A stretch of 64,000 nt of DNA from a virus. This document shows, piece by piece, positions 2,796 to 55,150 of this stretch. Positions within the stretch are counted from its first letter, which is position 1. The number at the start of each line of letters is the position of its first letter. The DNA is taken from positions 1 through 64,000 of the IMG/VR virus record IMGVR_UViG_3300045996_003284, one strand, 5' to 3'. The notes beneath the pieces are model-generated. The model saw only the letters and a list, made by a program, of their open reading frames with translations. It made no database searches and was not told where the DNA came from. The translations under genes were made by a program, and so were the position numbers.

Positions 2796-3062
2796 ATGGC
2801 GGGTGACGTTCCAGGGTTCCAAATCCCGATGCACCGGAGTCTTCTGAAACCGGTGACCATCAAAGGGGTGGCGCGCGTGCCCGCCATCCTGATCGGGGTC
2901 GTCGGAGCGCTTCTGATCTTCAGCCTGCACAAGGTGACCGGCGGGGTGATCATCAGCGTGGGGCTCTGGGTCGTCGCCCGACACCTCACGGAAATGGATC
3001 CGCACATGTTCGACTTTATGGTCCGTCGGGCGCGGTCGCGCTTGCCGTTCCTCGGGGGCTAA
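2796..3062 (+). CDS. trbD: TrbD (VirB3)
   Basis: PGFQIPMHRSLLKPVTIKGVAR, two TM segments, ...EMDPHMFD; lies before trbE. Confidence 0.9.
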   Translation: MAGDVPGFQIPMHRSLLKPVTIKGVARVPAILIGVVGALLIFSLHKVTGGVIISVGLWVVARHLTEMDPHMFDFMVRRARSRLPFLGG

Positions 3063-3064: not shown

Positions 3065-5557
3065 ATGCTCAATCTGAAAGAATTCCGGGACGCGCCAAAA
3101 TCCCTAGCCGATTTTCTGCCTTATGCGGCGATGCCGTTCGATCAGTACCCGTTCGTGATGGCGCTGAAGGACGGCGGCTTGCTGGCAGCGATCCGGTATC
3201 AGGGACCGGACCTGGAAAGCACCTCAACGCAAGCGTTGGTGAACTACTATTCCAACCTTGGCACGATGCTCAAACACTTGGGAGACGGATGGGCCGTCCA
3301 CCTGATCGCTGACCGCTTCTACACGACCGATTACCCGGAGGCTGACTGGCCGTGCTGGGCGGCGTACCTGTTCGACCGGGAGCGTAGGGCACTCGTTCAG
3401 CAAGGCGACTGGCGGCAACTGGAGAGCGACTATATTTTGGCTCTGACCTATCTTCCCCCCGGTGACGCGACGGGGCGGTTGGAGCGTATGCTGATCGAGG
3501 GCGAGGACGGTGAGAAGATCGACGCCGGCCTTGAATATGTCGATTTCTTCGCCCGGCGTGTCGTTGAAACCGCAGACCTTATGAAAGCCTACATGCCGCA
3601 GGCCAAGGTTCTGACGCCGAACGAGTTGTTGACTGTCCTTCACCACCCCCTGTCGCTGGAACGGCAGCAAGTCGATCTTCCGGAAGTTCCTATGTTTTTG
3701 GATTGCCTTCTGGCCCACGAACCTGTGTGGCCGGGCATGCGGGTCGGCATCGGCTATACCGAGGATGCCAACGGCAACGCGCGTCCACAGGAGTATGTAA
3801 TCACCGTCGGCGTCCGAGGCTATCCCGCCAGCACCCACGCTGGCATGCTCGATGATCTGAACAGCCTTGGCTTCCCATACCGCTGGTCAACCCGCGCCAT
3901 CACGCTGGGCGCTGAGCAATCTCTGCGAGCCGTGCAGACTCGCGTCAACAGGTGGGGGTCACAACGGAAGGGTTTGATGGCGCTGGTCGCCGAGCACATC
4001 ACCAAGGAGCCGACCGAACGGCTCAATGAGGAAGCCGTGGCGCTCCATGCCGACAGCAAAGAAGCCCTCCGAGAGGTCGCTGAGGGTCTGGTCTGCATGG
4101 CGTACATCACACCGACGATCACGGTGTCCGATCCCGACCTTGAAACGGCCAAGGAGAAGGCAAAGAAGGTTGTTGGCCTGCTCAAAGCCAAGCATTTCGC
4201 CGCCTATGTCGAGACATTCAACGCCTTCGAAGCGTGGCTGGGAAGTCTCGCCGGAAGTTGCTACGCGAACGTTCGCCAACCTCTCGTCAACACGATGAAC
4301 TTGGTTCACTTGGCACCGCTGTCCGGGGTCTGGGCGGGTGAGTCGTGGAATCAACACCTGAAGGGACCGGCGTTGATGCGGGCTCTCACCGATGGAAATA
4401 CGCCGTTTCATTTCAACCTCCACCACGACGACGTCGGGCATGCTTTAATCGTCGGACCGACCGGCTCCGGTAAATCCGTATTGCTGGGGACCGTGTCGAT
4501 TCAGTTCCTACGCTATCCCGGCGCTCGGGTTTTCGCGTTCGACAAGGACAGGAGCATCCGGATCGCTACCCTGTGCGTCGGTGGCAAGTTCCACGATGTC
4601 GGGGCTCAGGATGACGGCGTTGGCCGTCAACCGCTGCGCTATATCGACCAGCCGGATGAGCTGACCTGGGCGACGGAATGGATCTACGACCTGATGGTCA
4701 AGGCCAACGTAGCCCTGACAACCGACCAGAAGAACCACATTGCCGAAAAGCTGGCCTCCCTGGCATCGAGCCCGCCGGAGGAGCGGACCTTGACCGTGTT
4801 GCGCGCCCGCCTGGGCGATAAGACTCTCAAGGATGCTCTGAAGCCGTTCACCCTGGGTGGCGTTTTTGGCCACCTGTTGGACGGTGACCACGACGACTTC
4901 AGCGTCACGCGGTGGCAGGCGTTCGAGATGGGCCGGCTTCTGGGGCAACCCAGCGCGTGCATTCCCGTGATGACCTACCTGTTTCATCGGATCGAACAAA
5001 CCCTGTCTGAGAACGATGATTCCCCCACTCTGCTGATCATCGATGAAGGCTGGCGGTTCCTGGACGACACCACCTTCGCGGGTCAGATCGCCGATTGGCT
5101 GCTGACCCTCAGAAAAAAGAACGTGAGCGTCATTTTCACGACGCAGACGATCAGCTCGATCTCGGAAAGCCGGATTGCGCCCATCATCCGCGACAATTGC
5201 CTGACGCGAATTTATCTCCCCAATGCCGGCGCCACAGACGAAGACACCGCGCCGTATTACCAGGGTCTGGGTCTGAACAATCAGCAAATCCGCCTGATTG
5301 CGAAGGCTCGTCGGAAACGGCAATACTATTATACGTCCGATGATGGCAATAGGATGTTCGAGTTGGGCCTTGTCGATCTCGGGCTTCTCTTGGTTGGGTC
5401 CAGCGACAAGACTGACCATGCACTGGCAGACAACATTCTTGAGCGGTACGGGGAAGAACGGTTCTTCGAGCAATTCCTACGGGCCAGGGGGTACCACTGG
5501 GCAGCGGATTTGGTGTCAGGCAAAATAACCGACACCGTGGCAGTCGCCGCAGAATAG
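3065..5557 (+). CDS. trbE: Conjugal transfer ATPase TrbE (VirB4)
   Basis: MLNLKEFR..P..LADFLPYA start, DVGHALIVGPTGSGKSVLL Walker A, LLIIDEGW Walker B, WLLTLRKKNVSVIFTTQ. Confidence 0.96.
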   Translation: MLNLKEFRDAPKSLADFLPYAAMPFDQYPFVMALKDGGLLAAIRYQGPDLESTSTQALVNYYSNLGTMLKHLGDGWAVHLIADRFYTTDYPEADWPCWAAYLFDRERRALVQQGDWRQLESDYILALTYLPPGDATGRLERMLIEGEDGEKIDAGLEYVDFFARRVVETADLMKAYMPQAKVLTPNELLTVLHHPLSLERQQVDLPEVPMFLDCLLAHEPVWPGMRVGIGYTEDANGNARPQEYVITVGVRGYPASTHAGMLDDLNSLGFPYRWSTRAITLGAEQSLRAVQTRVNRWGSQRKGLMALVAEHITKEPTERLNEEAVALHADSKEALREVAEGLVCMAYITPTITVSDPDLETAKEKAKKVVGLLKAKHFAAYVETFNAFEAWLGSLAGSCYANVRQPLVNTMNLVHLAPLSGVWAGESWNQHLKGPALMRALTDGNTPFHFNLHHDDVGHALIVGPTGSGKSVLLGTVSIQFLRYPGARVFAFDKDRSIRIATLCVGGKFHDVGAQDDGVGRQPLRYIDQPDELTWATEWIYDLMVKANVALTTDQKNHIAEKLASLASSPPEERTLTVLRARLGDKTLKDALKPFTLGGVFGHLLDGDHDDFSVTRWQAFEMGRLLGQPSACIPVMTYLFHRIEQTLSENDDSPTLLIIDEGWRFLDDTTFAGQIADWLLTLRKKNVSVIFTTQTISSISESRIAPIIRDNCLTRIYLPNAGATDEDTAPYYQGLGLNNQQIRLIAKARRKRQYYYTSDDGNRMFELGLVDLGLLLVGSSDKTDHALADNILERYGEERFFEQFLRARGYHWAADLVSGKITDTVAVAAE

Positions 5558-5565
5558 GAGCCCCA

Positions 5566-7479
5566 ATGACCCGCAAAACAATTCTCGCGGCTGCGTTCCT
5601 GATCCTGTCGTCATCCACGTCCTTCGCGGCCATCAACGCCGCCGATTACGGAGTCAGCGCGTCTAACGGTGACAACGCGGCCGCCTTACAGCGTGCTTTC
5701 GATGCGGCTGGGCCGGGCGAGGAAGTGATCATTCCGAATGGGAGAATCGCCTACGGTCGCCAACTCAGGATTGACAGCGCGCGGGTGCGGGGCTCCGGGG
5801 GCACCGTTCTGGCACCGTCCAACCCGGCCAATCAAAGGATCTTCATGACCGGCAACGGGCCATCGATTTCCAACATGCGAATCGATTATCATCCCATCCA
5901 CCGCAACGGCTCAGAAACCGGGCGAGCCGGAATTTGGGTACAGGAAGCTAGGAACTTCAACGTCAGCGGCATCGTTCAGGACGGCGCAGCCTACGGCGTT
6001 CCGGCAACGCGGGGGATGGGAGGGAGCGGCATCTTCGTGCACCGATCCCAGGGCGGCACCATCCGGAATAATACGATCAGCTACACAAAAGCGGATAGCA
6101 TTCACATTACGAACGGGACCTCTGATGTCGAGGTGACCGGAAATCGGATTGTGGGCAGTGGTGATGACGGAATTGCGACGGTGGACTACGGCGGCGGTGT
6201 CCGAAACATCCGGATCGACGGCAACACGGTCCTCGATAATCGCTGGGGGCGCGGCATCACTGCGGTAGGGTCTTCGGATGTCCGAATCACCAACAATTTT
6301 ATCGACGGCAACCGCACCGACGGTGCGGGCGTGTATATCGCATCCGAACGCGGCTGGGGCATCGGCGCCCCTCGGAACATCCTGGTTCAGGGCAACACCA
6401 TTCAGGATACCGGCGGTCGCGGCAAGGGCCATGGTCAGATCATGGTGGCGAACGGCGGCGGCGCGCCGTCGAACATCCGCATCCAGGATAACGAGGTTCG
6501 GAATTCCAAAACCCCACAGCATGCTGTCGTGCTAAGCGGGAGCATGAACAACGTCACTCTGGAAGGTAACACCATCGACGGCGAGATCGTCCGCCGCAAC
6601 GGGGGCAGCTTCACGGGCAGCGGAAACACCACCAACGACCCTAGGATGAACAACCCCGCACCGGTTCCTGAGGGAACACCGCCGCCCATGGGTGGCGGTG
6701 GCGGCGGTGACTGGGGTGGCGAGCCGGACGGTGAGGGAGAGGAAGCTGTTAACAACGTCATCTCCAACGCCGGAAATTTTACGGGGGCGTGCTCCGGGAC
6801 GACCGGCCTGTCCAGCGCCATCTCGGCGGGCGCGGGCATCGCGTCGATTGCCAGTGGGGGACGCGCCACCGCTGCGCTTCAGATCGCCCAGCAAGCCCAA
6901 CTTATTGCCCAGCGGATCTGTCAAACGGAGCAGTTGATGACCATGCTGGAGAACCTGAAGAAGACGCCGCTCAACACGGCCGGGGCGATCCAGTCCGCCA
7001 TGGCCCAGCTTCGGTCGATGCTGGGAACGACAGACGCAACGATCTACAACCAAGCTGCGGCGATGCGTGCCTATGGCGAATTGTACCCAAATGACATGTC
7101 GGACATGACGATCGAAGAGGTTCTTGGCAAGACGCAGGAATGGCGTGAAGTCGCCCATGAAGCGGTTCAGGAGTCTTGGCGGGTTCAGTCAGCGGCCGTT
7201 CAGGCACAGGAAGCCTCTTCGGCGCGCGTTGGTCAGCAACTCGCTGCCGTTCAGACAGCCCCCGGCATGCTGGCGGCACAGCAGGCGACGGCGCAACTGA
7301 TCGGAAGCCTGATCGGCGATACACAGGCCATGCAGACCGTAACGATGTCCCACTTCCGGGCCGTTGAGAACCAGATCGCAAAAAGTGAGGCCAAGACGCT
7401 GCAAGCCGAAGAACTGCACCGCCGGGCTATGGAAAATTTGGGTGCGAATAGTACAGTTGAGGTCATGAGCCCCTACTAA
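5566..7479 (+). CDS. trbJ: TrbJ (VirB5) fused to an N-terminal right-handed parallel beta-helix (pectin-lyase fold) domain
   Basis: Signal peptide; aa ~22-355 beta-helix (ADYGVS...DNAAALQRAFDAA, ADSIH, SGDD, GRGIT); Pro/Gly linker; C-terminal helical TrbJ-like region (MLENLKKTP, YGELYP, QTAPGMLAAQQATAQL); lies between trbE and trbL. Confidence 0.85.
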   Translation: MTRKTILAAAFLILSSSTSFAAINAADYGVSASNGDNAAALQRAFDAAGPGEEVIIPNGRIAYGRQLRIDSARVRGSGGTVLAPSNPANQRIFMTGNGPSISNMRIDYHPIHRNGSETGRAGIWVQEARNFNVSGIVQDGAAYGVPATRGMGGSGIFVHRSQGGTIRNNTISYTKADSIHITNGTSDVEVTGNRIVGSGDDGIATVDYGGGVRNIRIDGNTVLDNRWGRGITAVGSSDVRITNNFIDGNRTDGAGVYIASERGWGIGAPRNILVQGNTIQDTGGRGKGHGQIMVANGGGAPSNIRIQDNEVRNSKTPQHAVVLSGSMNNVTLEGNTIDGEIVRRNGGSFTGSGNTTNDPRMNNPAPVPEGTPPPMGGGGGGDWGGEPDGEGEEAVNNVISNAGNFTGACSGTTGLSSAISAGAGIASIASGGRATAALQIAQQAQLIAQRICQTEQLMTMLENLKKTPLNTAGAIQSAMAQLRSMLGTTDATIYNQAAAMRAYGELYPNDMSDMTIEEVLGKTQEWREVAHEAVQESWRVQSAAVQAQEASSARVGQQLAAVQTAPGMLAAQQATAQLIGSLIGDTQAMQTVTMSHFRAVENQIAKSEAKTLQAEELHRRAMENLGANSTVEVMSPY

Positions 7480-7496: not shown

Positions 7497-7679
7497 ATGA
7501 TGCACGCCGCGCTGACCCCGAAAGCCATTATCATCGTCCTGCTGTTCGGTGGCTTTGTTTTGATTGACCGCAGTTGCTCAATGGAAGATCCGACCGTGAA
7601 GGTGGGTCAGGAGCGGCACAAGGCGGCCATGAAGGACCTTGGCAAGAACACCTATCACCACGTCCAAAGCCCGTATTAA
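7497..7679 (+). CDS. trbK: TrbK-like entry exclusion protein
   Basis: 60 aa, N-terminal hydrophobic segment, AAGGAG RBS, lies between trbJ and trbL; C-terminus mirrors the TrbJ C-terminus (H..AM..LG.N....V.SPY). Confidence 0.7.
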   Translation: MMHAALTPKAIIIVLLFGGFVLIDRSCSMEDPTVKVGQERHKAAMKDLGKNTYHHVQSPY

Positions 7680-7692
7680 TCAGGAGCAGACT

Positions 7693-9645
7693 GTGGACAC
7701 CGGTATCATTGATACACTGCTCAACGCCTACATCGCGATTGGAGACGCGGCCATTATCGCGATCAGTCCGTCCGTGATGTATGTTTTTGTATCGCTTGGC
7801 GTGATTGGCCTCACGTGGGCGCATCTCAAGAACGCCATCTCTCAGCGGGAAAGCCCGGTCACGCTGCTTATCGTGCAGTTCATGTTGATCGGCTTCTTCG
7901 TCTGGCTGCTCCAGAACTGGACCGCTCTGACGAAGATCCTGATGGCGGGCATGGTCAAGATGGGTTTGCTGGCCGGTGGCAACCGGATGTCAGAAACCGA
8001 CTTCTTGCATCCATCAAAGATCGTCGCGGAAGGCATTCGTGTTGCCGCTCCGCTAATCGATGCCGTAGGCTTCTGGGGCTGGCTGACCGGTTCGAACATT
8101 ATTCTCGGCATCAGTATGGTTATTGTCGTCATGGCTTTCTGCGTGCTGTCGCTCCAGGTCTTGGTGGCTATCGTTGAATTCAAGCTAGGCGTTATCTGGT
8201 CTTTTTTCATGGTGGCACTTGGCATCTTTAATGGAACATCGTTCGCGGCCCAGAAAGCGCTTGGCTACGTTTTCGCGACCGGAATCAAGTTATTTGCCGT
8301 GGCAACGGTCGTGTCGATTGGCGGTACCCTGATCGCAACCCTGGGCGTGTTCGCTGACCCGGCCGCTCCGACCTACACTGAATCCATCGCGATTGCTTTC
8401 GGCTCGGTCGTGTTGGCGGCTTTGGCGTGGTTCATTCCAGCCAAGGTAGCCGGCGTGATCTCGGGGGGACCCTCACTGGGAGCTGGTGCGGCGGTCGGTA
8501 CGGCGGCGGCCTTGGCGGCAACGGCAGCAGTCGCCGGAATGGGCGGTGCAGCGGTGACAAGCGCGGCAACGAAAGCCAGTGCGGGAACCAATGCTCTACG
8601 AGCGGCGTCAACTGGCGGGAGCGCCACTCGTGGAGGACTGAGTCTGCCTGTATCTAGCGGCCCAGTCGGGCGCGCGGCCGGTGGAGGAGCTGGGCGTGGT
8701 GGCTCGTCTGCCGGTTCCAGCAATGTGATTAGCATGGGACGCGACAATCTGTCCTCGCAAATGAAGGCGAACCCTATGATGGCAGCCAATGCCCTGGAAA
8801 CCATGAACCGGATCGAGCAAGCCCACGCCAAGACTGTGGGGAAGGGTGGCGGAGGAGCCGCCGCCGAACATGCCCGCGCGCAAGCCTATCGCGGACTGGC
8901 CTGGGATATTGGCGATGCGATTCAGACCACCAATCCAGAACTGTCCAACAAGATCGACAGTGAACTAGGCCGGATCGAAGCGATGAAGTTCGAGATCGCC
9001 AAGGCAGGGGTATCTCCGCAAGAGAACAGCGCCATGTTGGCTGAGGAGTACCGAAACGTCACGACCAGGGCGCTGAACCTGGATGGTGGTGGCGGCTTCG
9101 ACACTCCAGCCCTGTCGACCGCGCTGTCTCCCGAGGGGCGGGCGCAGAATGCCGCCTTAGCATCGAGCCTGGGTGTCGGTGACGAGATCCGTTCCATGGC
9201 CGCGCAAGGCCGGAGTACACGCCAGATTGCCGAGGGGCTGGGTGACCGTCTGTCGCCCGTCAATGCTCAGGCGGACCGCCTTGGCGAGGGCAGCGACGCC
9301 AACCTACATCGCATGGCTGTCGTCCAGGCATACAAGGACCAAAATGGCATCCCGAACCCGAACGCGGAAGGCTTCAAGGCGTGGGCTGCGGCTGAAAAGA
9401 AGATCCGGGCGGTGGGTTCATCAGTGTCGGCTGAAACGCAGGCGGCAACGGGCTCATCGGCACTGGTAGCAACCCAATCAGGCGCTCAGTCCACACGATC
9501 CAGTACCCCGACATGGGCGCAGAATACGAGCTATACGGGTCCGACCACGCTCTTGAAGATCCCAGCCAATATCAATGCAATGGTTCCGCGCGACGCTGAA
9601 AAGAGTGCGGGCATGAACGCCGACAATGTTGGAGCGAAGGACTGA
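7693..9645 (+). CDS. trbL: TrbL (VirB6) with long C-terminal extension
   Basis: GTG after AGGAG; DTGIIDTLLNAY start, FLHPSKIVAEG, IVEFKL, PAKVAGVISGGPSLGAG; polytopic N-half. Confidence 0.92.
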   Translation: MDTGIIDTLLNAYIAIGDAAIIAISPSVMYVFVSLGVIGLTWAHLKNAISQRESPVTLLIVQFMLIGFFVWLLQNWTALTKILMAGMVKMGLLAGGNRMSETDFLHPSKIVAEGIRVAAPLIDAVGFWGWLTGSNIILGISMVIVVMAFCVLSLQVLVAIVEFKLGVIWSFFMVALGIFNGTSFAAQKALGYVFATGIKLFAVATVVSIGGTLIATLGVFADPAAPTYTESIAIAFGSVVLAALAWFIPAKVAGVISGGPSLGAGAAVGTAAALAATAAVAGMGGAAVTSAATKASAGTNALRAASTGGSATRGGLSLPVSSGPVGRAAGGGAGRGGSSAGSSNVISMGRDNLSSQMKANPMMAANALETMNRIEQAHAKTVGKGGGGAAAEHARAQAYRGLAWDIGDAIQTTNPELSNKIDSELGRIEAMKFEIAKAGVSPQENSAMLAEEYRNVTTRALNLDGGGGFDTPALSTALSPEGRAQNAALASSLGVGDEIRSMAAQGRSTRQIAEGLGDRLSPVNAQADRLGEGSDANLHRMAVVQAYKDQNGIPNPNAEGFKAWAAAEKKIRAVGSSVSAETQAATGSSALVATQSGAQSTRSSTPTWAQNTSYTGPTTLLKIPANINAMVPRDAEKSAGMNADNVGAKD

Positions 9646-9647: not shown

Positions 9648-10415
9648 ATGTGGAATCCATTCAAGGCCGCAGCGGATACGGCGGCAAAGACAACCGGGGC
9701 GCATGATTTCCGGTCAGCTAAGGTAGACGATTACGGCAGCGGGCAACCCATGCTGTCGCCGTTCCAGCGGGCGCGCCAAGAGTGGGATGACCGGATCGGA
9801 GCCCCGACCGTGCGGGCCAAGAACTGGCGCCTGATGGCCTTCGGCATGGCTGCAGTCAACGTTCTGCTTGCCGGCGGCCTGATCTACAAGACGATGTTGG
9901 CGCCGATGGACCTCTGGGCGGTCCCGACCGATTCCAAGGGCCTGATTACGGGGCAGGCACAGCGGTTTGCCGCTCAGCGGTATGTGCCGTCGCGTGATCA
10001 GGTAGCCGCCGACATCGCGCAATGGCTCGAATGGGTTCGGACGAAACCAGCAGATGGGGCGAAACTTCGATCCGACATTGAAAAGGCATATGTCTACCTG
10101 GACGATACGGCCAAGCGGAAATTGAACGAATATAACAAAAAATACGACCCGTTTGCGGCCTACAACAACCCGGAAAAGATGGCGCGCAAGACTGTCACCA
10201 TGACGTTTCCGAAGGTCCTCCCGATGGAAGGTTCGTCCTACCACGCAACCTGGACGGAGACTGTTTGGGAGTACGGCCAGTCTCGTCCGCCCTACACCAT
10301 GACGGCGACTTTCACGGCGACGGCGGAGGGGCAGACCAACGAGACCCTGATCAATCTCAACCCCGCCGGCACGAAAATCCATGATTTCGACTGGCGAAGC
10401 GATGCGATGCCCTGA
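9648..10415 (+). CDS. trbF: TrbF (VirB8)
   Basis: SPFQRARQEWDDRIGA..VRAKNWRLMAF; C-terminal NPAG.KIHDFDW. Confidence 0.93.
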   Translation: MWNPFKAAADTAAKTTGAHDFRSAKVDDYGSGQPMLSPFQRARQEWDDRIGAPTVRAKNWRLMAFGMAAVNVLLAGGLIYKTMLAPMDLWAVPTDSKGLITGQAQRFAAQRYVPSRDQVAADIAQWLEWVRTKPADGAKLRSDIEKAYVYLDDTAKRKLNEYNKKYDPFAAYNNPEKMARKTVTMTFPKVLPMEGSSYHATWTETVWEYGQSRPPYTMTATFTATAEGQTNETLINLNPAGTKIHDFDWRSDAMP

Positions 10416-10465: not shown

Positions 10466-11461
10466 ATGAAAAGACTTGTCGCCATCATCACACCGGCCCT
10501 GCTGGCGGCCTGTGCCTCGACGCCACCGGAAGGGCCGACACCGACCAATCTCGTGTCGGTAGGCCCAGCGCCAGATGTCCAGATCATCGAGAAGAGCGTC
10601 CCGGTTCTTCTGGCGCCAGAGCCGGTGGTCAAGGAAAAGCCCAAGAAAGGCGTTGATCCGGTGACCGCAACGCGGGCTGCCAACAAACGCGCCATCGAAA
10701 TGCCTCGGCCCGAGCGGTTTATCGGCAGCACGCTGATCTATCCGATCGTGCCAGGTGCAACATACAACGTCCTGACCGCTGTCAACGACATTACCAGCAT
10801 CGAGATGCCACCGGGATGCCGGATGAACGCAAAATCGCCGATGATTGGTGATCCCTCCCACGCGGGTGACGATCAGCGACAAGCAAACACTGCTGAGGAC
10901 ATAGAACCCGCCAATTGGCTGATCGCGAAAACCTTCCACGGGACACCGCGTGATCCCGTTTCCAAGGTCGTCGTACGGCCCCACAAGCCGGATCTCCGGA
11001 CATCCCTCCAGGTTGACACCGACTGCGGGTCGTTTCGCTACAAGCTCATCTCGACCCAGGAGTCAGCCAACGTCACCGTCCGGTTTCGGCAGGAGCAGCC
11101 CAACCTTGGCCTGCCACTGCCTCCGACCGCCGAAGAGCTGGCCTCCAAGGCGAGGCCCGTCGCGTCCTGCGCTGACACGCCGGTTTCGGAGGTGCGGCGC
11201 AGCTATACGATCACGGGTGACCAACCATCTTGGCGTCCGGTGGACATGGATGTCTTCCACACTGCGGCGAAGACCTGCATCGGGATGCCGGACGGCTTGG
11301 GCAACCTGGAAACCCCGAGCATTTCCAGGCCCTCGCATGATGGTGATGAAGCCACCGTGTATTACCGCACGGTCGGTCGCTTCATCGAGGTTGATCAGAT
11401 CCTGCCAGCCGTGACTCTGAAGCTCGGCCAGGAAACCGTGACCCTGACCCTGAACCGCTGA
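10466..11461 (+). CDS. trbG: TrbG (VirB9), lipoprotein-type N-terminus
   Basis: ALLAAC lipobox, A.RAANKRA...P, PGATYNVLTA...ITSI, KVVVRP...LRTSL, WRP...FH; lies between trbF and trbI. Confidence 0.85.
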   Translation: MKRLVAIITPALLAACASTPPEGPTPTNLVSVGPAPDVQIIEKSVPVLLAPEPVVKEKPKKGVDPVTATRAANKRAIEMPRPERFIGSTLIYPIVPGATYNVLTAVNDITSIEMPPGCRMNAKSPMIGDPSHAGDDQRQANTAEDIEPANWLIAKTFHGTPRDPVSKVVVRPHKPDLRTSLQVDTDCGSFRYKLISTQESANVTVRFRQEQPNLGLPLPPTAEELASKARPVASCADTPVSEVRRSYTITGDQPSWRPVDMDVFHTAAKTCIGMPDGLGNLETPSISRPSHDGDEATVYYRTVGRFIEVDQILPAVTLKLGQETVTLTLNR

Positions 11462-11471: not shown

Positions 11472-12680
11472 ATGCAGCCTAAAACCCAGGCTCCCGGAAC
11501 CCTGCGACCGAAGACGCCAAAGCCGAGAGGAATCAGCCGCAAGGTCACCCTTGGCCTAACGGCTACAGCAGCGGCCGGCGTTCTGGCGGCCTTCGTTCTC
11601 GATCCAGGCTTCAACCTGCAGAATGCGCCGCCGGCCCAATCGCCGATGCTCAGCAATGTGCGTCCGGACCTGTCCGGCCTGCCGTCTGACTACCGCGAGA
11701 TGCAAACGGCCTCGATGGCCGTTCCGGCGGCACCCCCGGCGCCCAACCCAACGGATTTCCCGCTGATCAAGAGGGAGGAGCCGATCCGACAAAGTGGACC
11801 GGCCAAGCCAAAGCCGAGGAAGATCCGGGCCGGCATTGCCGTGGGTGGCGACGACGGTATCGACCAAGCCAATCAGGGAAGCGGCGGCGTTCAGACCGTG
11901 GCGGACACACAGCGATATCCTGACAGCGCGGCGTATGACGGCATGAACGGAATCGGCGGAGGCGGCACCATGGGGGGCGGAGGCGGTATGGCTGGCATGG
12001 GCGGAGGCGGTATGGCCGGCGGTGGCCGACAACCTCGAACGGCAGCCCAGGGCTTCCGGCAGGACAATGGCGGGGACGGGGAGATGTACCTGCCCCGCAG
12101 CATTCAGAACCCTCTCGGTGAGTACGAAATCTGGCCCGGAACCATCATCCCGGCTAAGTTGGCCAGCGCCACCAACAGCGAACTTGGCGGCAACGTCGTC
12201 GCCCGCGTGTCGGCCGACATTTATGACAACAAGGGGGGCCGCTGCAAGATGATCCCACGCGACTCGACCGTGTTCGGGAAGCTCTCTGATGAAGTCACCT
12301 ACGGTCAGCGCCGACAGCAGGCGGTGTGGAGCATGCTGATCCTGCCGAACGGCCAGAAACTGTCGCTGATGGGCATGGACGCGACGGATGGAGCAGGTCG
12401 GAGCGGTATCACGGCCAACGTCAACAATCACTACGGGCGTCTGGCGGTGGCCGCTATCGCGGCGACTGCACTCGACGTTCTCAGCGATCTGGCTCGCGAT
12501 GACAACAACGGCACACAGGTGAATATTGGCGGGGCGGCGGCCAACAACGTTACATCCATCGGCGACCGCATCATACAGCGCGAACTGAACGTGCCGCCAA
12601 ACCTGGAGCAGATCATCGGCCACCCGGTAAGCCTCATGGTGGATCGCACAATCGTTATGGGTTGCTACAATGATCAATAA
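11472..12680 (+). CDS. trbI: TrbI (VirB10)
   Basis: N-terminal TM, Pro-rich linker, PGTIIPAKL.S..NSEL.G.V.ARV...IYD, LILPNG, D..G.SG...VNNHY, RELNVPP. Confidence 0.93.
   Translation: MQPKTQAPGTLRPKTPKPRGISRKVTLGLTATAAAGVLAAFVLDPGFNLQNAPPAQSPMLSNVRPDLSGLPSDYREMQTASMAVPAAPPAPNPTDFPLIKREEPIRQSGPAKPKPRKIRAGIAVGGDDGIDQANQGSGGVQTVADTQRYPDSAAYDGMNGIGGGGTMGGGGGMAGMGGGGMAGGGRQPRTAAQGFRQDNGGDGEMYLPRSIQNPLGEYEIWPGTIIPAKLASATNSELGGNVVARVSADIYDNKGGRCKMIPRDSTVFGKLSDEVTYGQRRQQAVWSMLILPNGQKLSLMGMDATDGAGRSGITANVNNHYGRLAVAAIAATALDVLSDLARDDNNGTQVNIGGAAANNVTSIGDRIIQRELNVPPNLEQIIGHPVSLMVDRTIVMGCYNDQ
11941..12025 (+). repeat. Gly/Met low-complexity repeat within trbI
   Basis: GGGGTMGGGGGMAGMGGGGMAGGG; ggcggaggcgg units repeated. 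Confidence 0.8.
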
Positions 12681-13092: not shown

Positions 13093-13297
13093 CCTGGCCA
13101 TCCTGGCCAGCACCGCCGCTATCCTGTCTGCCTGCACCAGTCCACCACCGCCGCATTACCCGGTCGTCGGACAATACCCTTATGCTATTCCTCAGCACAA
13201 ACCGGACCCAATCCGTGAAACCAGCCAACAACTCTCTTTCATTGACCAGATCATGCGGCAAATCCAGAGTATTCAGGGAACGACCCAGCGGTTCTAA
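13079..13297 (+). CDS. Small lipoprotein (VirB7-like or exclusion factor, unresolved)
   Basis: GGGAGG RBS; MLRPNLAILASTAAILSAC lipobox; Pro-rich mature N-terminus. Confidence 0.6.
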   Translation: MLRPNLAILASTAAILSACTSPPPPHYPVVGQYPYAIPQHKPDPIRETSQQLSFIDQIMRQIQSIQGTTQRF

Positions 13298-13790
13298 ACG
13301 CTGGCTCCCCTTGACGCTGGGCGTCACGGCTTTTGCGATCGCCCTGGTCGCCCAGGCGCTTGGTCCCGTCGCGACGTGGAACCACACGCCCAGCCTCGCT
13401 ACAGGCCTCTACGTGCGTTCTGCGACGGCTCCGACTGTTGGTGCCATCGTCGCCTTCCCAGCGCCGCCTGCGGCCTTGGATTACGCTCAGCGGCGTGGCT
13501 GGGGAGGTGCCCCGGTGCTGTTCCTGAAGCCTCTGGCAGCCGGCCCAGGTGATCATGTCTGCGTGACTGACGACCACCTGGAGATCAACAGACGGAACAT
13601 CGCACCGGTCCATATGGTTAGCTCAGACGGAACGCCGTTGCCTCGATGGAACGGGTGCCGAGAAATGGCGGATGGCGAGTGGTTCGCGTATGCCCCGAGG
13701 ACTCCGAACAGCATGGACAGCCGATATTATGGGCCGGTGATGGAGACGGACATCGTCGGTGTGTTTCGGCCTGTGTGGACCGGAAGTTAG
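13182..13790 (+). CDS. traF: Conjugative transfer S26 peptidase TraF (pilin maturation); true start probably downstream
   Basis: WNHTPSLATGLY (Ser), FLKPLAAGPGDHVC (Lys), PNSMDSRYYGPV. Confidence 0.92.
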   Translation: MLFLSTNRTQSVKPANNSLSLTRSCGKSRVFRERPSGSKRWLPLTLGVTAFAIALVAQALGPVATWNHTPSLATGLYVRSATAPTVGAIVAFPAPPAALDYAQRRGWGGAPVLFLKPLAAGPGDHVCVTDDHLEINRRNIAPVHMVSSDGTPLPRWNGCREMADGEWFAYAPRTPNSMDSRYYGPVMETDIVGVFRPVWTGS

Positions 13791-15576: not shown

Positions 15577-16107
15577 ATGCTGCGCATCGAGGGACCCGTC
15601 ACTGATGAACAATATGAGGAAATTCGGGAGGCCGCCGGGAAGGCTGGACTTAGCATGCGCCGCTATGTCACCAAGGCGACACTGAAGAACGTCCGCGAGA
15701 CGCCTATCCAGGACCAAATCGAGGTGGTTGTCTCATGCATCGCGCAGGTGGCGAGCAACATCCAGTCCCTGGCGGCGATGCACCAGAGCATGCTGGTACT
15801 CCACGCTGAAATGGCCATGGCGACCCGCAACATCCTGGAGACCCAGGCCCGCGTCGAGCGAACCTTGCAGGATGTTGATCAGGGATACCGCAAGCTGAGG
15901 CAGATGAGCGCCACCATCGAGACGGAATTGCGCGACCACCGCCAAGAAGCCTTGGTCGGTTTGCAGCGGCTGGAACGCCTTACCGACGACCAGGAGCGTC
16001 AGCGTGCTGGACCTCGGGTCTACACGCCCAACACGCTGGATGGAGAAAACAAGAGAGATGACAATGGCGTCGAAATATCGCCGACGTTCAGCGCGTCGCT
16101 CCAGTGA
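15577..16107 (+). CDS. mobC: MobC-like relaxosome accessory RHH protein
   Basis: VTDEQYEEIREAAGKAGLSMRRYV..ATL followed by IAQVASNIQSLA (cf. MobC L.RIG.NLNQIA) and a coiled coil. Confidence 0.65.
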   Translation: MLRIEGPVTDEQYEEIREAAGKAGLSMRRYVTKATLKNVRETPIQDQIEVVVSCIAQVASNIQSLAAMHQSMLVLHAEMAMATRNILETQARVERTLQDVDQGYRKLRQMSATIETELRDHRQEALVGLQRLERLTDDQERQRAGPRVYTPNTLDGENKRDDNGVEISPTFSASLQ

Positions 16108-27165: not shown

Positions 27166-27617
27166 GTCGCGGTAATCTCCACCTTCCATGGCAGGAACGG
27201 GAACCGCCGGACCTCGATCGTGTAGACGCCAGGTGTCGCGGCGGCGAATTCGAAGCCGCCGCCGAAGACCTGGGTCGTGGTCGTCTCAACGGTGGGATCG
27301 GGATCGTCGATGATGATCTCGCACGGGTTCGGTAGGCCCGTCAGAGTGGCGAAGTCTTCGCCATCGGCCGTGATGGCCGTCTTGTCAACGGCAACCTGCA
27401 GAACGGCCTTGTCGACCACGATTTCGACGCCGTTGAAAACCTGGACGTACTGAGTATTCGGATCGCTCGCGACTTCCAACAGATCGTGGTTGTCACTGCC
27501 CCACGGTGCCAGCGCCGCGCTGATCTGGGCGTCCCGGAATTCCGCGATCAGCAGGATACCGCCGCTTGAGACGATTTCGCCGGTGTCGGTGCGGTAGATG
27601 GTGACCGGAGATGTCAT
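27162..27617 (-). CDS. Tail-associated protein
   Basis: TIYRTDTGEIV start; ITADGEDFATLTGLP, PGVYTIEV..FPF; ATGA overlap with the J stop. Confidence 0.65.
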   Translation of the reverse strand: MTSPVTIYRTDTGEIVSSGGILLIAEFRDAQISAALAPWGSDNHDLLEVASDPNTQYVQVFNGVEIVVDKAVLQVAVDKTAITADGEDFATLTGLPNPCEIIIDDPDPTVETTTTQVFGGGFEFAAATPGVYTIEVRRFPFLPWKVEITAT

Positions 27618-30600
27618 CTCTTGTACTCTACCGCAACAATCTGGCACCGGGGCTTGGCAGCTCCCATCCAGAAGGGGTCCGTGAAACGGACCCAGCCGGC
27701 ATTCCCAGCGTTGGACTGGACGTCCCATCTCAGCGTCGTTCCCGGCGCAACCTGGAAGATATGAGACAGGGTGGCGGAATCGTTGATGCCTTCCATTTGG
27801 GCGGCGACGCCGTTCAGAAGCATCCTTACGACCGCTGGGCCAACCAAAAGCAGATGCGTGGTGACGTGGATGGTGCCTCCGCCCACCGAGGACCAGCCCA
27901 TGATGTCGGTGTTCTGGAAACTCATGTTGTAAGTGGCGCCGGCCACCAAGTTTTCCATGCCAGCGACGGCGACGCCGAGGCCATTGGCTGTCAGGATATC
28001 CTTTCCGACGAGGTCTCGGACATAAAGGCCATCCAGAACCCGGTTCGGTGTTGGACCGTTCTGGCCGATCGACACACGTGTAACACCCGCCGAATCAACG
28101 AATCGAAGCGCTCGATGATTAGACCGACTTTCAATGTCGATAAACCCGAGGCCGGGCGTCTGGTCGCCGATGCGGATGTACTGAGCGTTGACGATGCCGC
28201 CGCGAAGACGATCAACGTTAAGTTCTTCGACATGGCCGGTGTTGATCTGGGCTAAGCCGATGTGGGCGCTGTTGATCAGGCCGCTGTCGATCTGAGCCGT
28301 GGCGGTGATCAGGCGCTGGGTTGAGAGTTCGGTTGCCGTGATGGACTGAGCCTGGATACGGTCGGCGTTTATAGTCCGCGCCCGGATGCCGTTGCCGTCG
28401 ATGATCGTGCGGGCATAGGAGACGAAGAGGCGCTCCGCGCCGGTATACGTGCCAAGGACGATTACGGACGGATTGGCGTTGATGGCCTGATCGGTCGTGC
28501 CGCTGATGTTTCCCGTTCCGACAGTCCAATAGATAAAGAGGACGCCGGTGGTCCACTGCAGCGAGCCGCTGGTGATGGCGTAGGTCGTGACGCCATTGCT
28601 GTCGGTTGCGGGCATGATGGCCGTACCGGCCGTCCAGGTTACCTGGGATGTTTCGCGCACCGGCGTGAAAGCAACGTTGACGAATTCAACGCCGACCCCG
28701 ACGGTGAGCTTGTCAGCCGTGATGGTCCGGGCGGCGATCGAACCGCCGTGAATCTTGGTCTGGTCCGGCCCGTACAAGATGTTGGCCAGGGTTGTTCCGC
28801 TGCTCAACGTGATTTTGCCGGGCAAGATCGTTGTCGTGCCGCGGTTGATGGCGGAGGCGGGGTCGCCACTGGCCAGAACGGTCGCGCCGAGAGTCTGGCC
28901 AGTTCCGGACACGATGACCTCGCCGGACAGGACGCTGCCGGCGATGATCTTGTTGGCGTTGAGGCTGGCGATCTTGGCGTCGTCGATTGTGCCGTTCGCG
29001 ATCGCCGCGTTGACGATGCTCAGTTCCTGATAATCCGCCTCCTCAATTTTCTTTGTCCGCGCCCCGATACCGCCGGTCAGGCTGGCTGGGAAGAAGCTGG
29101 ATTTGTTACGCGAGCGATCAACCGCCCGGATCCAGTAATAGAACTGAGCACCACCGGGCAGGTTCTCACGGGTGAACGTCGTGCCCGGCGCGTTGGCGAT
29201 GTAGGTTGCCTGGGTGCGGTCGTTGACGGTCGCTTCCCAGATCTCCATGTGGGAAAAATCCGGGTCCGGATGCGCCGGCCATTGCACCCAGATCGTCTTA
29301 AAGGCCGAACTGGGCGTCAGGCTGGTGGGGACGCTCGGGGCTTCGTCGTCTCCACCGATGACGATGCTGACTTCCGGACTGGATATCGAGTCGTTGAAGT
29401 TGTAATCCGAGGCGCTGAGGCGGACACGATAGAGGGTTCCGGCCTGAACCATCCACTCATAGCGCGGTACGTTGGTCGAGAAGAACAGGAAATTCCCAGT
29501 TTCCTCCGCGATTTCGACCCCATAACTGCGAAAGTCGTCGTCAGCGTTGGCGGCCCAGGTCGCGATCAGCCAGAATGTCTTGGTGCCGTCCGGCCCCATC
29601 CGGACCTCGTCCGTGAGCGCAAGGCCGGTGGGGACCGCCGGGGGCACCGTGTCGGCATCCTCCACACCGACCGTGACCACTTTGAGTTCGGCCGAGACGT
29701 TGAGACCCGTCTTGCCGAAACTGTCGTAACCGGCGACGCGCAAGTAGCGGGTAACCTGGATCGGCGCTTGGAGGAAGATAAAGTTGTTGGGGCCGTCGTA
29801 GACAACGGCTTCTGGGAGGGTTGCGAAGCCGGAGGTGTTGCCCATCCAGACGATGCAGCCTTCGTAGTCGAGATCGGCAGGTTTGTCGAAGCTGAGGAAG
29901 ATGGAGCCGTAGCCGCCCTCGGCCATCAGGCCGGTGACCTGAGCAGGGGCGGGGTTGGCAACGTCGATGGCGGCCGGCTTTGAGTAATTACCCCACTTGT
30001 CGCGCATCAGGACTTCGAACTTGAAGGCCCGATACGGCCCACCAGGCGACTGGCTGTTGCGCTCGAAGCTGAAGATGTAGCGCGGCTCGGTGACGTGGTC
30101 GACGAAGACCATGGTTCCGTTGAGGGTATAGACTCGGACCTCATAGTCCCGGAAGATAGGATCGAGATAGCCAGCGCCGGCAGCCGGTTCTGTGCCCATT
30201 GGGTAGGCACCGCGCACGGCGGTGCCGCGCCAGACGAAAACCGGGTCGCGCCCCAGGAACTCGTGGTTATTGCCTTGTCCTTCGATCTCCAGGCCAGTTG
30301 GGGTCAGCAGCGTGATCGGGCTGGTGTCAAGAACGTTCGCTTCCAGGATAGCGGGGCGGCTGAACACGCCGGCGAAATTGACGGCGTGAATATGGATCAG
30401 GAACTGGCCAGCGCTGTCACCATAAATGGTCTGCGTAAGGCCGGTCACTTCGTTAAATTCGGTGAAGTTGCCGCTGTTGCGCCGGTAACGAACGACGTAG
30501 CCGCGAATAAAAGCGTCCGGACTGGCATCCCAGGAGATCTGGAGGGCATCGGTCCAACCGGTCGGAGTTGAAATGTACTGACGTTCGACGCGCGGGTTGA

Positions 30601-32503
30601 GAGGCGGCTGAACCACGCCAGGGTCCGGCATCTTGCTCCACGGCCGGGTGGCAACGTTGATGCCACGTTCGACACGGGCGTAGATAGCGGGGTCGTGAGG
30701 CACGGCGGCGACGGAGTATTCCAGGTCGCCCTCATCGTTGACGCCAATGATGCGAAACTGACGCAGGGCGAGGTCACTGGCTTCGACCGCCCACATCGAT
30801 TCCGGCACCGGCACCGAGGGAAATGGCGGCAGCACGGTCACGCGGCTGACCCGTCCGGGCGTGTTGGTAACCGTACGCTTCTCAACCGTACCGTTGGGCA
30901 GCGTGACGTGGAGGGTGTAGGTCTTGCCGCCCTCGATCAGAATGCTGTCATCTAGGGTCACCGTTGTGGAATCAGCGTTAATCACCCGGCCGCCCATGCG
31001 GACCCCAGCGGTATGCTTGTCGGCGACCGCGACGATATCGCCGGGCGCGGCCTCGATGTGGTCCAGGGAGGTCCGGTAGGACAGAGTGTCACCAAGCTTC
31101 TCGGTTTCGATCAACCACTTGCCAAGGCGCTTACTCTGTCCCCTCGACCGACAGGCGAAAGCGGTGATCTCGGACGCCTGCCAGCCGTAGCGCTCAATCA
31201 GGTCGGCGTCCTGATAGACCTCGACATCCTGATCACCTTCGTCGTTGATGAAAGAGACAATGGCGACGGAGTGAATGGCGCGAGCGGCTGGGCCAGAGAA
31301 TTCCAGACCGCCGGTCGTGTTGGCGGGGCTGACGATGACGTGGGGGTCGCGCGGCGCGTCCTGGACGACCTGGACCGCGCCGTTGGCCCAATACGCCATC
31401 GCGCGGAAGGTGGAGGCCAGGGCGTTGAGCGCCGCGTAGGCTTCCTGGGCGGTGTTGATGTTGAAGTGGGCGGTGAAGCGCGGCTCCAGGATGTCTGAGC
31501 CGTCTGCGTTCTTCAGACCGGAGGGGACCAACTCGTCACAGTAGCGCGCGGCAGAATAGAGGCTCCAGCGGTCGACCATGCTGTCGGGCAGGTTGGCTCC
31601 GGCGGCGTGGGTCAGAAGTTGCAGGAACAGCCAGGCGGGGTTGTCGGTGTAGGCGATTTTGTAGGTGCCGTCCCAGATGCCGACGTAGTCTCGGCCCTCG
31701 GGGGAGTAGTTAGTCGGCACTCGGCAGAACCAACCGCGCCACTTGGCGGTGACGGTCGGCATCGAGCCACCAAACAGTTCGGCGTCGAACTCCAGCGCCA
31801 GCAGGGCGGTGCGCGGGTAGCTCAGTTTGCGGTCGATGATGTCGGTGATCGATGACCAGGAGAAGCTGTTCTGGAGACCAGCGCGGTTGCTGTCCGGGGT
31901 CATACGGACGACTTGGATGTCCCAGGGACCATCGCCCGGCAAATCGACCGACCAGGCCGCTTCATAGGTGCTTGTGGTTTTTCCCTCTATTGCGTATGGA
32001 TAATCGAATTCCCAGCCGGAGCGGCCCTGACGGCGGACCCGGATCAGGAAATCGATCCGGGTGCCGGTCATGTCGCCATTCGTCGCGTTCTGATCGAACA
32101 AGCTGTTGACAACGATGGTGATGCGCGCCCGGTTGGCGTTGGTGTTGACGATCGAGCGGGTGGCCGGTGTGTGGGTGGTAACCTCGACGGGCAAGCCGAT
32201 GTCGCCGGCGTGGATGGCCTCGACCGCGGGAAAACCCGGTATCCAGGACTGGTCCGGATCGCCACGCCGGTAGTCCCACTTGACGCCCTTGAAATTGGAG
32301 CTGCCGTCCGCGTTGATGAGCGGCGTCCCGTTCAGGTACAGATTCTTGCCACCCTCGGCGTAATCTCCGACAATCCCGACCGTCAGACCCTCGCCGATGG
32401 CGTAGAGCACCCGGCCGGTGGCCTTGCTCTGGAGCGTGTTGGGGCTTTCGATCGGGGTCCGGGTCGCCGGTGTTTTCGATTTCTTGGAAGAGAACAAACC
32501 CAT
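27614..32503 (-). CDS. Central tail tip / host specificity protein J (lambda gpJ-like)
   Basis: P.ESPNTLQS, IGEG, YPRTAL.ALEFDAELF, RVPTNY...R.Y.GIWDGTYK.AYTDNPAW, YCDELVP, EPRF; FN3 repeats. Confidence 0.95.
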   Translation of the reverse strand: MGLFSSKKSKTPATRTPIESPNTLQSKATGRVLYAIGEGLTVGIVGDYAEGGKNLYLNGTPLINADGSSNFKGVKWDYRRGDPDQSWIPGFPAVEAIHAGDIGLPVEVTTHTPATRSIVNTNANRARITIVVNSLFDQNATNGDMTGTRIDFLIRVRRQGRSGWEFDYPYAIEGKTTSTYEAAWSVDLPGDGPWDIQVVRMTPDSNRAGLQNSFSWSSITDIIDRKLSYPRTALLALEFDAELFGGSMPTVTAKWRGWFCRVPTNYSPEGRDYVGIWDGTYKIAYTDNPAWLFLQLLTHAAGANLPDSMVDRWSLYSAARYCDELVPSGLKNADGSDILEPRFTAHFNINTAQEAYAALNALASTFRAMAYWANGAVQVVQDAPRDPHVIVSPANTTGGLEFSGPAARAIHSVAIVSFINDEGDQDVEVYQDADLIERYGWQASEITAFACRSRGQSKRLGKWLIETEKLGDTLSYRTSLDHIEAAPGDIVAVADKHTAGVRMGGRVINADSTTVTLDDSILIEGGKTYTLHVTLPNGTVEKRTVTNTPGRVSRVTVLPPFPSVPVPESMWAVEASDLALRQFRIIGVNDEGDLEYSVAAVPHDPAIYARVERGINVATRPWSKMPDPGVVQPPLNPRVERQYISTPTGWTDALQISWDASPDAFIRGYVVRYRRNSGNFTEFNEVTGLTQTIYGDSAGQFLIHIHAVNFAGVFSRPAILEANVLDTSPITLLTPTGLEIEGQGNNHEFLGRDPVFVWRGTAVRGAYPMGTEPAAGAGYLDPIFRDYEVRVYTLNGTMVFVDHVTEPRYIFSFERNSQSPGGPYRAFKFEVLMRDKWGNYSKPAAIDVANPAPAQVTGLMAEGGYGSIFLSFDKPADLDYEGCIVWMGNTSGFATLPEAVVYDGPNNFIFLQAPIQVTRYLRVAGYDSFGKTGLNVSAELKVVTVGVEDADTVPPAVPTGLALTDEVRMGPDGTKTFWLIATWAANADDDFRSYGVEIAEETGNFLFFSTNVPRYEWMVQAGTLYRVRLSASDYNFNDSISSPEVSIVIGGDDEAPSVPTSLTPSSAFKTIWVQWPAHPDPDFSHMEIWEATVNDRTQATYIANAPGTTFTRENLPGGAQFYYWIRAVDRSRNKSSFFPASLTGGIGARTKKIEEADYQELSIVNAAIANGTIDDAKIASLNANKIIAGSVLSGEVIVSGTGQTLGATVLASGDPASAINRGTTTILPGKITLSSGTTLANILYGPDQTKIHGGSIAARTITADKLTVGVGVEFVNVAFTPVRETSQVTWTAGTAIMPATDSNGVTTYAITSGSLQWTTGVLFIYWTVGTGNISGTTDQAINANPSVIVLGTYTGAERLFVSYARTIIDGNGIRARTINADRIQAQSITATELSTQRLITATAQIDSGLINSAHIGLAQINTGHVEELNVDRLRGGIVNAQYIRIGDQTPGLGFIDIESRSNHRALRFVDSAGVTRVSIGQNGPTPNRVLDGLYVRDLVGKDILTANGLGVAVAGMENLVAGATYNMSFQNTDIMGWSSVGGGTIHVTTHLLLVGPAVVRMLLNGVAAQMEGINDSATLSHIFQVAPGTTLRWDVQSNAGNAGWVRFTDPFWMGAAKPRCQIVAVEYKR

Positions 32504-48110: not shown

Positions 48111-48529
48111 GCTGCGGTGTCACCGCCGAGCACGACCTGAGCGGCGGTGCCGCTGGCATTGGAAGCGACGAAAACATAAGCCTGGGCATATTGTCCGGCC
48201 GTCTTGCTGTGCCCACCGCGCGACAGCAGGGCACCGCTGGCGGCGACCGCGACCGTAACCTGTCCAGCCCCCATCTGGACGATTCCGCATTCCCATCCGT
48301 CCGGGAGGGAATTGGGAAGTGTCAGGGTGACGGCACCGGACGAGTTAAAGACGATCCGGCGCCGGTTGTCAGCGGCGGTGGCGGTGTAACTGGCGGTCTT
48401 GGTCAGGTTGGCCTGGATGGTCCGGTCTTCCAGGGTGTCGATCAGGTCGTGCAGGTCCTGCGCCGTGATCGCTCCGGACACGCCAATCGGCATGTTGGTC
48501 TTGAGGGTGGCGATCGTCTGGATGGTCAT
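48107..48529 (-). CDS. Fibre-associated structural protein
   Basis: GGAG RBS; LKTNMP..GAITAQDL.DLIDT N-domain; TASYT...D......FNS..AVTLTLP...G....IVQMGAGQVT...QYA...LGGD. Confidence 0.7.
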   Translation of the reverse strand: MTIQTIATLKTNMPIGVSGAITAQDLHDLIDTLEDRTIQANLTKTASYTATAADNRRRIVFNSSGAVTLTLPNSLPDGWECGIVQMGAGQVTVAVAASGALLSRGGHSKTAGQYAQAYVFVASNASGTAAQVVLGGDTAA

Positions 48530-48546
48530 GCGAAAGCTCCAGGCAT

Positions 48547-48570
48547 AAAAAACCTCCCAAAAGGCGGTCT
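48547..48570 (-). terminator. Probable intrinsic terminator
   Basis: ACCGCC-loop-GGAGGTTTTTTATG. Confidence 0.55.
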
Positions 48571-48609
48571 CAGGTGGCGAGAACCGAACAAGCGGAAGGA
48601 TGGACGCTC

Positions 48610-48798: not shown

Positions 48799-48844
48799 CG
48801 GGTTTCTCCATCACATAGGGGGCAGAAGGGGAAAGCACGTATTC

Positions 48845-51615: not shown

Positions 51616-51622
51616 CGGTGTG

Positions 51623-55144: not shown

Positions 55145-55150
55145 TGCCGC

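Follow-up and report, generated by a model that had tools for sequence, protein, structure and literature searches.

Type IV secretion systems (T4SSs) of the P type (Ti/IncP) include a minor pilus protein of the TrbJ/VirB5 family, usually about 220–260 amino acids (aa) long. How a P-type pilus chooses its recipients is largely an open question; elsewhere, recipient specificity is conferred by devices such as the R64 PilV shufflon adhesins and the F-like pairing of TraN with outer-membrane proteins, and we know of no conjugation system with a tool of its own against capsules or exopolysaccharides (EPS). In the structure of the R388 T4SS, a VirB5 pentamer stands on a VirB6 pentamer with its N-terminal part projecting outward (PMC9259494), and as the pilus grows, this VirB5 pentamer is carried outward on its tip (PMC9259494; reviewed in PMC12857230). 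Capsules lower the efficiency of conjugation in donor and recipient alike (PMC10918111). The subject of this report is a gene occupying the trbJ slot of a trb operon, at 5566–7479 (plus strand) of the window, by which is meant the first 64,000 nucleotides (nt; 64 kb) of a 74,247-bp record classed as viral in IMG/VR (IMGVR_UViG_3300045996_003284). Its product, P0001, is predicted to be a VirB5-family tip protein that bears an enzyme-type head.

The fusion gene and its TrbJ body

The gene consists of 637 uninterrupted codons and a stop, and is preceded by a Shine-Dalgarno sequence (AGGAG, 5556–5560) that overlaps the trbE stop codon and lies 6 nt before the ATG; all parts of the gene given below are on the plus strand. 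The frame opens with a predicted Sec-type signal peptide (aa 1–21; 5566–5628), recognized by its sequence pattern, its hydrophobicity (Kyte-Doolittle maximum of 2.19 in a 12-residue window) and its alignment with the signal peptides of homologues, with predicted cleavage between SFA and AINA (MTRKTILAAAFLILSSSTSFA followed by AINA). It leads into the head, a right-handed parallel beta-helix of GH87-like glycosidase type (aa 22–355; 5629–6630) that matches Pfam Beta_helix (PF13229; E = 5.5e-28) and is modelled by AlphaFold with a predicted local distance difference test score (pLDDT) mostly above 90. A flexible Gly/Pro/acidic linker (aa 356–405; 6631–6780) comes next; it contains PAPVPEGTPPPMGGGGGGDWGGEPDGEGEE, has 12 Gly and 8 Pro in its 50 residues and is modelled as disordered (pLDDT < 50). 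Head similarity stops at this linker in alignment A1, and the linker is likely to be the recombination joint between head and body. The remainder of the frame (aa 406–637; 6781–7476) is the body, a predicted all-helical, complete mature TrbJ/VirB5-family domain. An order of signal peptide, beta-helix, linker and TrbJ domain in one 637-aa frame had been proposed in the preliminary description of this DNA, and it holds by open reading frame (ORF), Pfam, NCBIfam and AlphaFold analysis; the trbJ slot claimed there is likewise confirmed by the gene order trbE, fusion gene, small ORF, trbL.

Assignment of the body to TrbJ, also part of that description, is upheld by matches to the NCBIfam profiles NF010448 (E = 1.4e-12; profile positions 46–232 of 246) and TIGR02780 (E = 9.4e-8). 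A genome-level profile search of the 74-kb record recovered the TrbJ match at E = 6.7e-15 and found the fusion gene to be the sole TrbJ homologue there. Residues from about 406 to 637 are 60–63% identical to unfused TrbJ proteins of 256–261 aa, which have signal peptides of their own and several of which are named TrbJ by JGI; Cys409 and Cys452 are invariant in the body. The body models, of low confidence, predict two long helices (49 and 57–58 residues), which would be consistent with a VirB5 fold. Because no second TrbJ is detectable on the record, and because the one signal peptide in the frame is that at the N-terminus of the fusion, with none in front of the body, the fusion protein is the TrbJ of this system if the system works.

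The beta-helix head and its exchange among lineages

The fold of the head is shared by many proteins. Structural matches at about equal scores (Z 30–35) include AlgE epimerases, GH28 enzymes, the adhesin PfbA, phi29 gp12, the VPS lyase RbmB, tailspikes and GH87 enzymes, and a structure search of BFVD matched many tailspikes at E values of 1e-7 to 1e-9. The tightest superposition is on the GH87 alpha-1,3-glucanase 7c7d (Agl-ST; Z 32.3, rmsd 2.0 Å, 321 residues, the match starting at chain residue 205); 5zru (Agl-KA) gives Z 30.7, and the GH87 superpositions span an rmsd of 2.0–2.4 Å over 321–327 residues. A search with the single P0001 sequence matches 7c7d at E = 2e-4, and a profile of the head family detects both GH87 enzymes over aa 20–341 (7c7d, E = 2.8e-13; 5zru, E = 1.8e-5). 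Thus, the fold alone singles out no tailspike relation, whereas the sequence profiles point to GH87 over phage proteins, and the label "tailspike-like" given to the head in the preliminary description stands at the level of fold (Z 30–34) but not at that of sequence.

Acidic residues in the motifs ADSIH (D177), SGDD (D200, D201) and ASE (E261) had been guessed to form a catalytic groove. These residues are present and invariant in 15 members of the head family, including standalone predicted secreted enzymes, in an alignment with a mean column identity of 45%. D177 (codon at 6094–6096) and the pair D200 and D201 (6163–6168), invariant in both alignments A1 and A2, align with the LADG...GDDG catalytic Asp positions of 5zru and 7c7d, D200 and D201 standing 23 and 24 residues past D177. 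The same spacing separates Asp1067, Asp1090 and Asp1091 of Agl-KA (numbering mapped by spacing, not by coordinates), which are important for catalysis (PMC6814745). The guess is thereby supported by alignment and spacing, and the head is best described, as far as its sequence can tell, as a carbohydrate-enzyme-type beta-helix in which the GH87 Asp triad is conserved. Identity of the head to GH87 enzymes is 21–23%; P0001 has no match to Pfam CatAgl_D2 (PF22816) at E ≤ 0.01, a domain that is present in the more distant relatives P0029 and P0044, and its beta-helix begins at aa 22, straight after the signal peptide, with the GH87 N-terminal domain missing. For want of that N-terminal domain and of a CatAgl_D2 match, the head is termed GH87-like and not a member of GH87.

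The architecture is rare but recurrent. Independent collinear fusions are 46–58% identical to P0001; full-length examples come from other samples (P0002, with 56% identity over 100% coverage, P0003, P0004 and P0008), and fused relatives occur in two species-representative genomes, G124 and G127, the latter on a complete circular plasmid of Skermanella rosea, pSR-1 (G127:C2). These collinear homologues, together with the finished plasmid, answer the concern raised at the outset that the gene might be a chimera. Within the Azospirillaceae, the family to which Rhodocista and Skermanella belong, TrbJ was found in 40 of 130 genomes, with 54 matches, at least two of them head fusions. Eight long frames lay at TrbJ matches in this survey; real head fusions are those in G124:C6 and G127:C2. 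Two other long frames, in G121:C31 and G116:C25, were rejected as TrbJ fusions since they overlap trbE in a different reading frame, and no TrbJ ORF was found with the query used at the long frames of G089, G099 and G108:C43. The frame in G046 encodes a 359-aa protein with about 140 additional N-terminal residues. No relative was found in the viral contigs scanned with P0001, and the 159 loci with head patterns in genome and metagenome contigs were all standalone, with no adjoining Trb gene or TrbJ domain (tblastn, E 1e-5), the closest of the metagenome contigs being too short to show gene context. Short stretches of the fusion gene are present in four soil DNA runs, among the soil data a 237-nt contig that matches 6714–6950, from the linker into the body, exactly; the whole head-to-body junction is spanned by no contig from the public soil runs, and no RNA run is listed as containing the gene. 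An apparent joint in the run data (6333/6691) was dismissed as noise, having 21-nt sides of low likeness.

The closest standalone heads, P0011–P0015, are 56–59% identical to the head of P0001 and up to 75% identical to other fused heads. They carry Pro-rich tails of 85–100 residues in which two C-terminal sequences recur, ...RFDLRNL(R/P)F and ...TRPPNC, which may be anchoring or sorting signals.

Head and body do not share one history. Between P0001 and P0005 the heads are 62% identical and similarity of the bodies is undetectable; between P0001 and P0004 the values are 63% and 23–26%. The reverse is found between P0001 and P0184 (head 27%, body 53%) and between P0003 and P0185 (head undetectable, body 50%). 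Comparison of these sequences shows the two histories to be discordant and the head to be a mobile, exchangeable cassette, whose family is found on at least four barely related TrbJ body lineages, on one TrbL and in standalone secreted enzymes.

P0184 is the product of the gene in the trbJ slot of pSR-1 (JL101_RS30095, WP_203102814.1; NZ_CP086112.1, 332873–334798), a 641-aa protein annotated as "hypothetical protein", an annotation with which the plasmid's operon seems to be without trbJ in the public record. The trb operons of pSR-1 and the window are orthologous (TrbB 82%, TrbE 72%, TrbL 62% and TrbF 74% identical), synteny runs from position 1 to about 13.8 kb of the window, and the head is the sole non-orthologous segment in that interval. 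Like P0001, P0184 has a signal peptide, a beta-helix head, a connector and a TrbJ body (53% identical) in the same slot; unlike P0001, it has a head of another beta-helix family (27% identity over 245 aa) and an extra helical connector module. This module, N(L/V)(Y/L)DTD(D/E)QFW...RRLNDLVSGG..., lies between head and body and is common to P0004–P0010 and P0184, and a different small domain, GF..NGW...I..I..G.MT.QEA, lies between head and body in P0034, P0069 and P0090; it is also seen alone on a 368-aa TrbJ (P0034). The fusion in G124 (P0185; 593 aa; contig 6, L165:2458–4239) has a type-B beta-helix head that shares 53–55% identity with the P0090 head, and its gene is separated from trbL by about 4 kb of additional genes.

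The head is also found on another component of the machine. P0009, an 832-aa protein from a JGI metagenome, consists of a signal peptide, the same GH87-like head, a Pro-rich linker of about 100 residues and a complete TrbL/VirB6 (TIGR02783, E = 1.2e-48).

Proposed placement and role of the head

We judge the chances to be about even that the head is a tip-tethered, swappable, glycan-binding and probably glycan-cleaving module that eases passage of the pilus across the polysaccharide layers of donor and recipient and makes transfer depend on the type of glycan. After Sec export, the mature protein, of about 64 kDa, would comprise a TrbJ body carrying an N-terminal beta-helix of 334 residues on a flexible linker of about 50 residues. 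The body would assemble as a VirB5 pentamer on TrbL/VirB6 and travel outward on the tip as the pilus grows, where up to five heads could be displayed; display at the distal tip would follow from the N-terminal placement of the head on its 50-residue tether together with the outward-facing N-terminus of VirB5. The heads would then bind, and probably cleave, a polysaccharide of the cell surface (EPS, capsule or O-antigen), both in the donor's coat and on the recipient, which would help the pilus to reach the recipient surface and tie the efficiency of transfer to the recipient's glycan type, much as tail spikes with depolymerase activity do in phages. A polysaccharide target is pointed to by the conserved catalytic triad, by an exchange of cassettes resembling that of receptor-binding proteins, and by the neighbourhoods of standalone homologues: in a tally of 106 ORFs neighbouring 14 of these homologues, made without a background control, six match a group-1 glycosyltransferase family and six are further beta-helix proteins, four of them with a GH87-type CatAgl_D2 domain. 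Also in favour of this reading are the paralogous head with the same motifs in the phage structural region of the contig and the known effect of capsules on conjugation.

Several points weigh against such a role at the tip. The TrbJ scores of P0001 lie under the curated NCBIfam cut-offs (47 bits versus 225, and 32 versus 100.55); its closest unfused relatives also score below the cut-off (57–63 bits), so that this is a diverged TrbJ lineage and the shortfall is not an effect of the fusion. Confidence in the modelled body is low (pLDDT 45–60 in both models, and 45 when the body is modelled alone). Known GH87 enzymes act on alpha-1,3-glucans from fungi and streptococci, and this specificity cannot be transferred to a head of such low identity that has no GH87 N-terminal domain. 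Beta-helices of the same fold also act as non-catalytic adhesins (PfbA, Z 33.9), and the neighbourhood tally has the missing control noted above. A position at the tip would also require five folded heads of 35 kDa to travel through the outer-membrane core complex before the pilus itself. Finally, P0009, with the head on the inner-membrane stalk protein TrbL, suggests a periplasmic site more than one at the tip.

Such a site would suit a machine-tethered periplasmic glycanase, an explanation that we consider unlikely. The head would stay in the donor envelope on the TrbJ/TrbL stalk and clear local periplasmic or nascent polysaccharide for assembly, thereby doing the work of the VirB1/TrbN lytic transglycosylase, which is missing from this Ti-type trb operon. 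It is favoured by the fusion in P0009 to TrbL/VirB6, which remains in the inner membrane, by the position of VirB5 and VirB6 as direct neighbours in the stalk (PMC9259494), by the absence of a recognized lytic transglycosylase among the annotated trb-module genes, and by OpgC (periplasmic glucan) genes near two standalone homologues. No peptidoglycan-hydrolase signature was found in the head, however, and a VirB1-like identity was rejected on that ground; the head has the fold and the Asp triad of glycosidases that act on polysaccharides. Swapping of heads in orthologous operons would be expected for a variable external target rather than for a conserved envelope component, and P0009 may belong to a degenerate element.

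That the head is a lectin-like adhesin, binding a glycan or protein of the recipient surface without cleavage, seems quite improbable. Proteins of the VirB5 family do act as tip adhesins (PMC9259494; PMC12857230), the Bartonella Trw system has variable VirB5 copies for host-specific binding (PMC12857230), and PfbA is among the top structural matches, but the three GH87-catalytic Asp positions are invariant across the 15 diverged homologues, the standalone secreted enzymes included, and this invariance argues for retained catalysis.

We give little credence to piggy-back export, in which the linker would be cut after export to free a secreted glycosidase and an ordinary TrbJ. A long disordered linker makes an easy target for proteases, close relatives of the head are secreted on their own as predicted enzymes with Pro-rich tails, and VirB1 is processed to a secreted fragment, VirB1*; the linker, however, has no conserved cleavage motif, and retention of the architecture over several body lineages and head types suggests that the tether matters. 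The chance that the gene is an artefact (an assembly chimera, a frameshift-fused gene pair or a decaying pseudogene) is very small, for although the record was assembled from a metagenome and the whole head-body junction is not covered by any one public read or contig, there are collinear homologues in other samples and fused relatives in pSR-1 and G124, no separate signal peptide precedes the body, both halves are conserved, the flanking operon is intact, and the soil contig matches exactly from linker into body.

A tip-tethered, glycan-directed head would, if real, be a concrete mechanism for overcoming the polysaccharide barrier and for the choice of recipients, and it would extend the logic of the phage "depolymerase receptor-binding protein" to plasmids and integrative and conjugative elements. 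It would also mean that the N-terminus of VirB5 can accommodate a large folded domain, a point of relevance to models of how pili are built. A still broader proposal is rather doubtful and is offered tentatively: that conjugative elements of soil Alphaproteobacteria mount exchangeable, active depolymerase heads, that cassette swapping, of the kind seen in phage receptor-binding proteins, gives them a glycan-defined host range, and that in the present element one head family serves both a mating pilus and a virion encoded on one DNA molecule.

The surrounding record and comparison with known systems

The fusion gene lies in an intact Ti/P-type mating-pair-formation operon with the order traG′, orf, trbB, trbC, trbD, trbE, fusion gene, small ORF, trbL, trbF, trbG, trbI, orf, traF, and the coordinates that follow are on the plus strand up to the traF-like gene. 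The C-terminal part of a TraG/VirD4 coupling protein (4–930; PF02534, E = 5e-21; PF12696), its gene cut by the start of the contig, is separated by a 125-aa ORF from trbB (1301–2263), after which come trbC (pilin; 2352–2672), trbD (2796–3062) and trbE (3065–5557). Downstream of the fusion gene, a 60-aa ORF with one hydrophobic segment (7497–7679) occupies the trbK slot, as does a 59-aa ORF in pSR-1, and is followed by trbL (7639–9645), trbF (9648–10415), trbG (10466–11461) and trbI (11472–12680), the trb genes other than the fusion being identified by profile matches. Beyond a 140-aa ORF lies a gene for a TraF-like S26 signal peptidase (13182–13790; PF10502, E = 1.3e-19), the last gene syntenic with pSR-1, and past it the conjugation module includes a NikA-like gene (15577–16107). 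The C-termini of the ORF in the trbK slot (...VQSPY) and of the TrbJ body (...VMSPY) are alike, those of unfused TrbJ relatives being ...RSPY or ...SPF.

The conjugation module runs directly into a lambda-like siphovirus structural module, which extends from about 16.5 kb onward on the minus strand and contains tail fibres (from about 20.5 kb), gpJ (27614–32503; phrog_31, E = 2.7e-233), the tape-measure protein (35046–40082) and neck genes (43.4–44.9 kb). The major head protein (L162:7432–8424, L162 being record positions 64001–74247) and the scaffold protein are encoded beyond the window. The interval from the capsid gene to the head-tail adaptor comprises about 26 kb of large co-oriented genes (44943–64000 and L162:1–5848), which is unusual for a lambda-like layout. 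Several large beta-helix proteins are encoded between the capsid and neck genes, and the products of the interval include a beta-helix protein of 1055 aa whose C-terminus is of tail-protein type, two virion proteins of phrog_3758, a protein with RTX repeats, a PcRGLX-like protein of 997 aa, proteins of 816 and 702 aa, and an 871-aa GH87-like protein (56642–59257, minus strand) with an N-terminal beta-helix of the TrbJ-head family followed by a Calx-beta domain. This beta-helix is 33% identical to the head of P0001 (E = 4e-25) and keeps ADSIH and SGDD; direct descent of the TrbJ head from this phage paralogue was rejected, since other heads, both free and fused, reach 56–63% identity to it. Searches of the 74,247-bp record revealed neither an integrase nor a tRNA. 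The phage part is absent from pSR-1, which, unlike the window, has no phage module beside its trb operon, synteny stopping at about 13.8 kb. The two modules together may represent a phage-plasmid capable of conjugation, a conjugative element with a prophage next to it, or an assembly error.

Searches of the full-text literature returned no paper that joins TrbJ with a beta-helix and nothing relevant on VirB5 with a depolymerase or extra domains; no enzyme-bearing VirB5 is described in the papers searched, and a T4SS review of late 2025 makes no mention of one (PMC12857230). This agrees with the statement of the preliminary description that no such system had been described, yet one fusion sits unrecognized in the public plasmid pSR-1. 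Current T4SS typing can miss trbJ in such operons, because genes of this kind are annotated as "hypothetical" or as "beta-helix repeat protein".

Compared with P-type TrbJ/VirB5 proteins (VirB5 of A. tumefaciens, TraC of pKM101, TrwJ of R388), P0001 is alike in its slot between trbE and trbK/trbL, its profile match and its status as sole copy, and its body is alike in its predicted all-helical structure, its mature TrbJ length and its Cys pair. It differs in its length of 637 aa and in having, in place of the native signal peptide, a 334-aa beta-helix with a signal peptide before it and a linker after it. With the GH87 enzymes 5zru and 7c7d the head shares a right-handed beta-helix and three Asp residues at matching positions and spacing; it differs in its 21–23% identity, the lack of a CatAgl_D2 match and the lack of the GH87 N-terminal domain.

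The tailspike and tail-fibre depolymerases of phages (Sf6, HK620, Dettilon, CBA120, phi29 gp12) resemble the head in fold (Z 30–34) and in the exchange of heads between lineages and, if the head is indeed tip-tethered, in placing a glycan-directed enzyme module on the tip of an attachment organelle. Unlike them, P0001 lacks a domain for anchoring to the virion, as well as any trimerisation or chaperone module, its N-terminus is a Sec signal peptide, its head would sit on a pentameric helical protein and not on a trimeric fibre, and no sequence relation is detectable beyond the fold, the nearest phage match being to Arthrobacter phage Peas (29% identity). R64 PilV and TraN, like the head of P0001, are variable, exchangeable modules on the donor side, and the head, too, would meet the recipient surface if it is carried at the tip. 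PilV and TraN are binding proteins without an enzyme fold, belong to other parts of the machine and vary by site-specific inversion or as allelic types.

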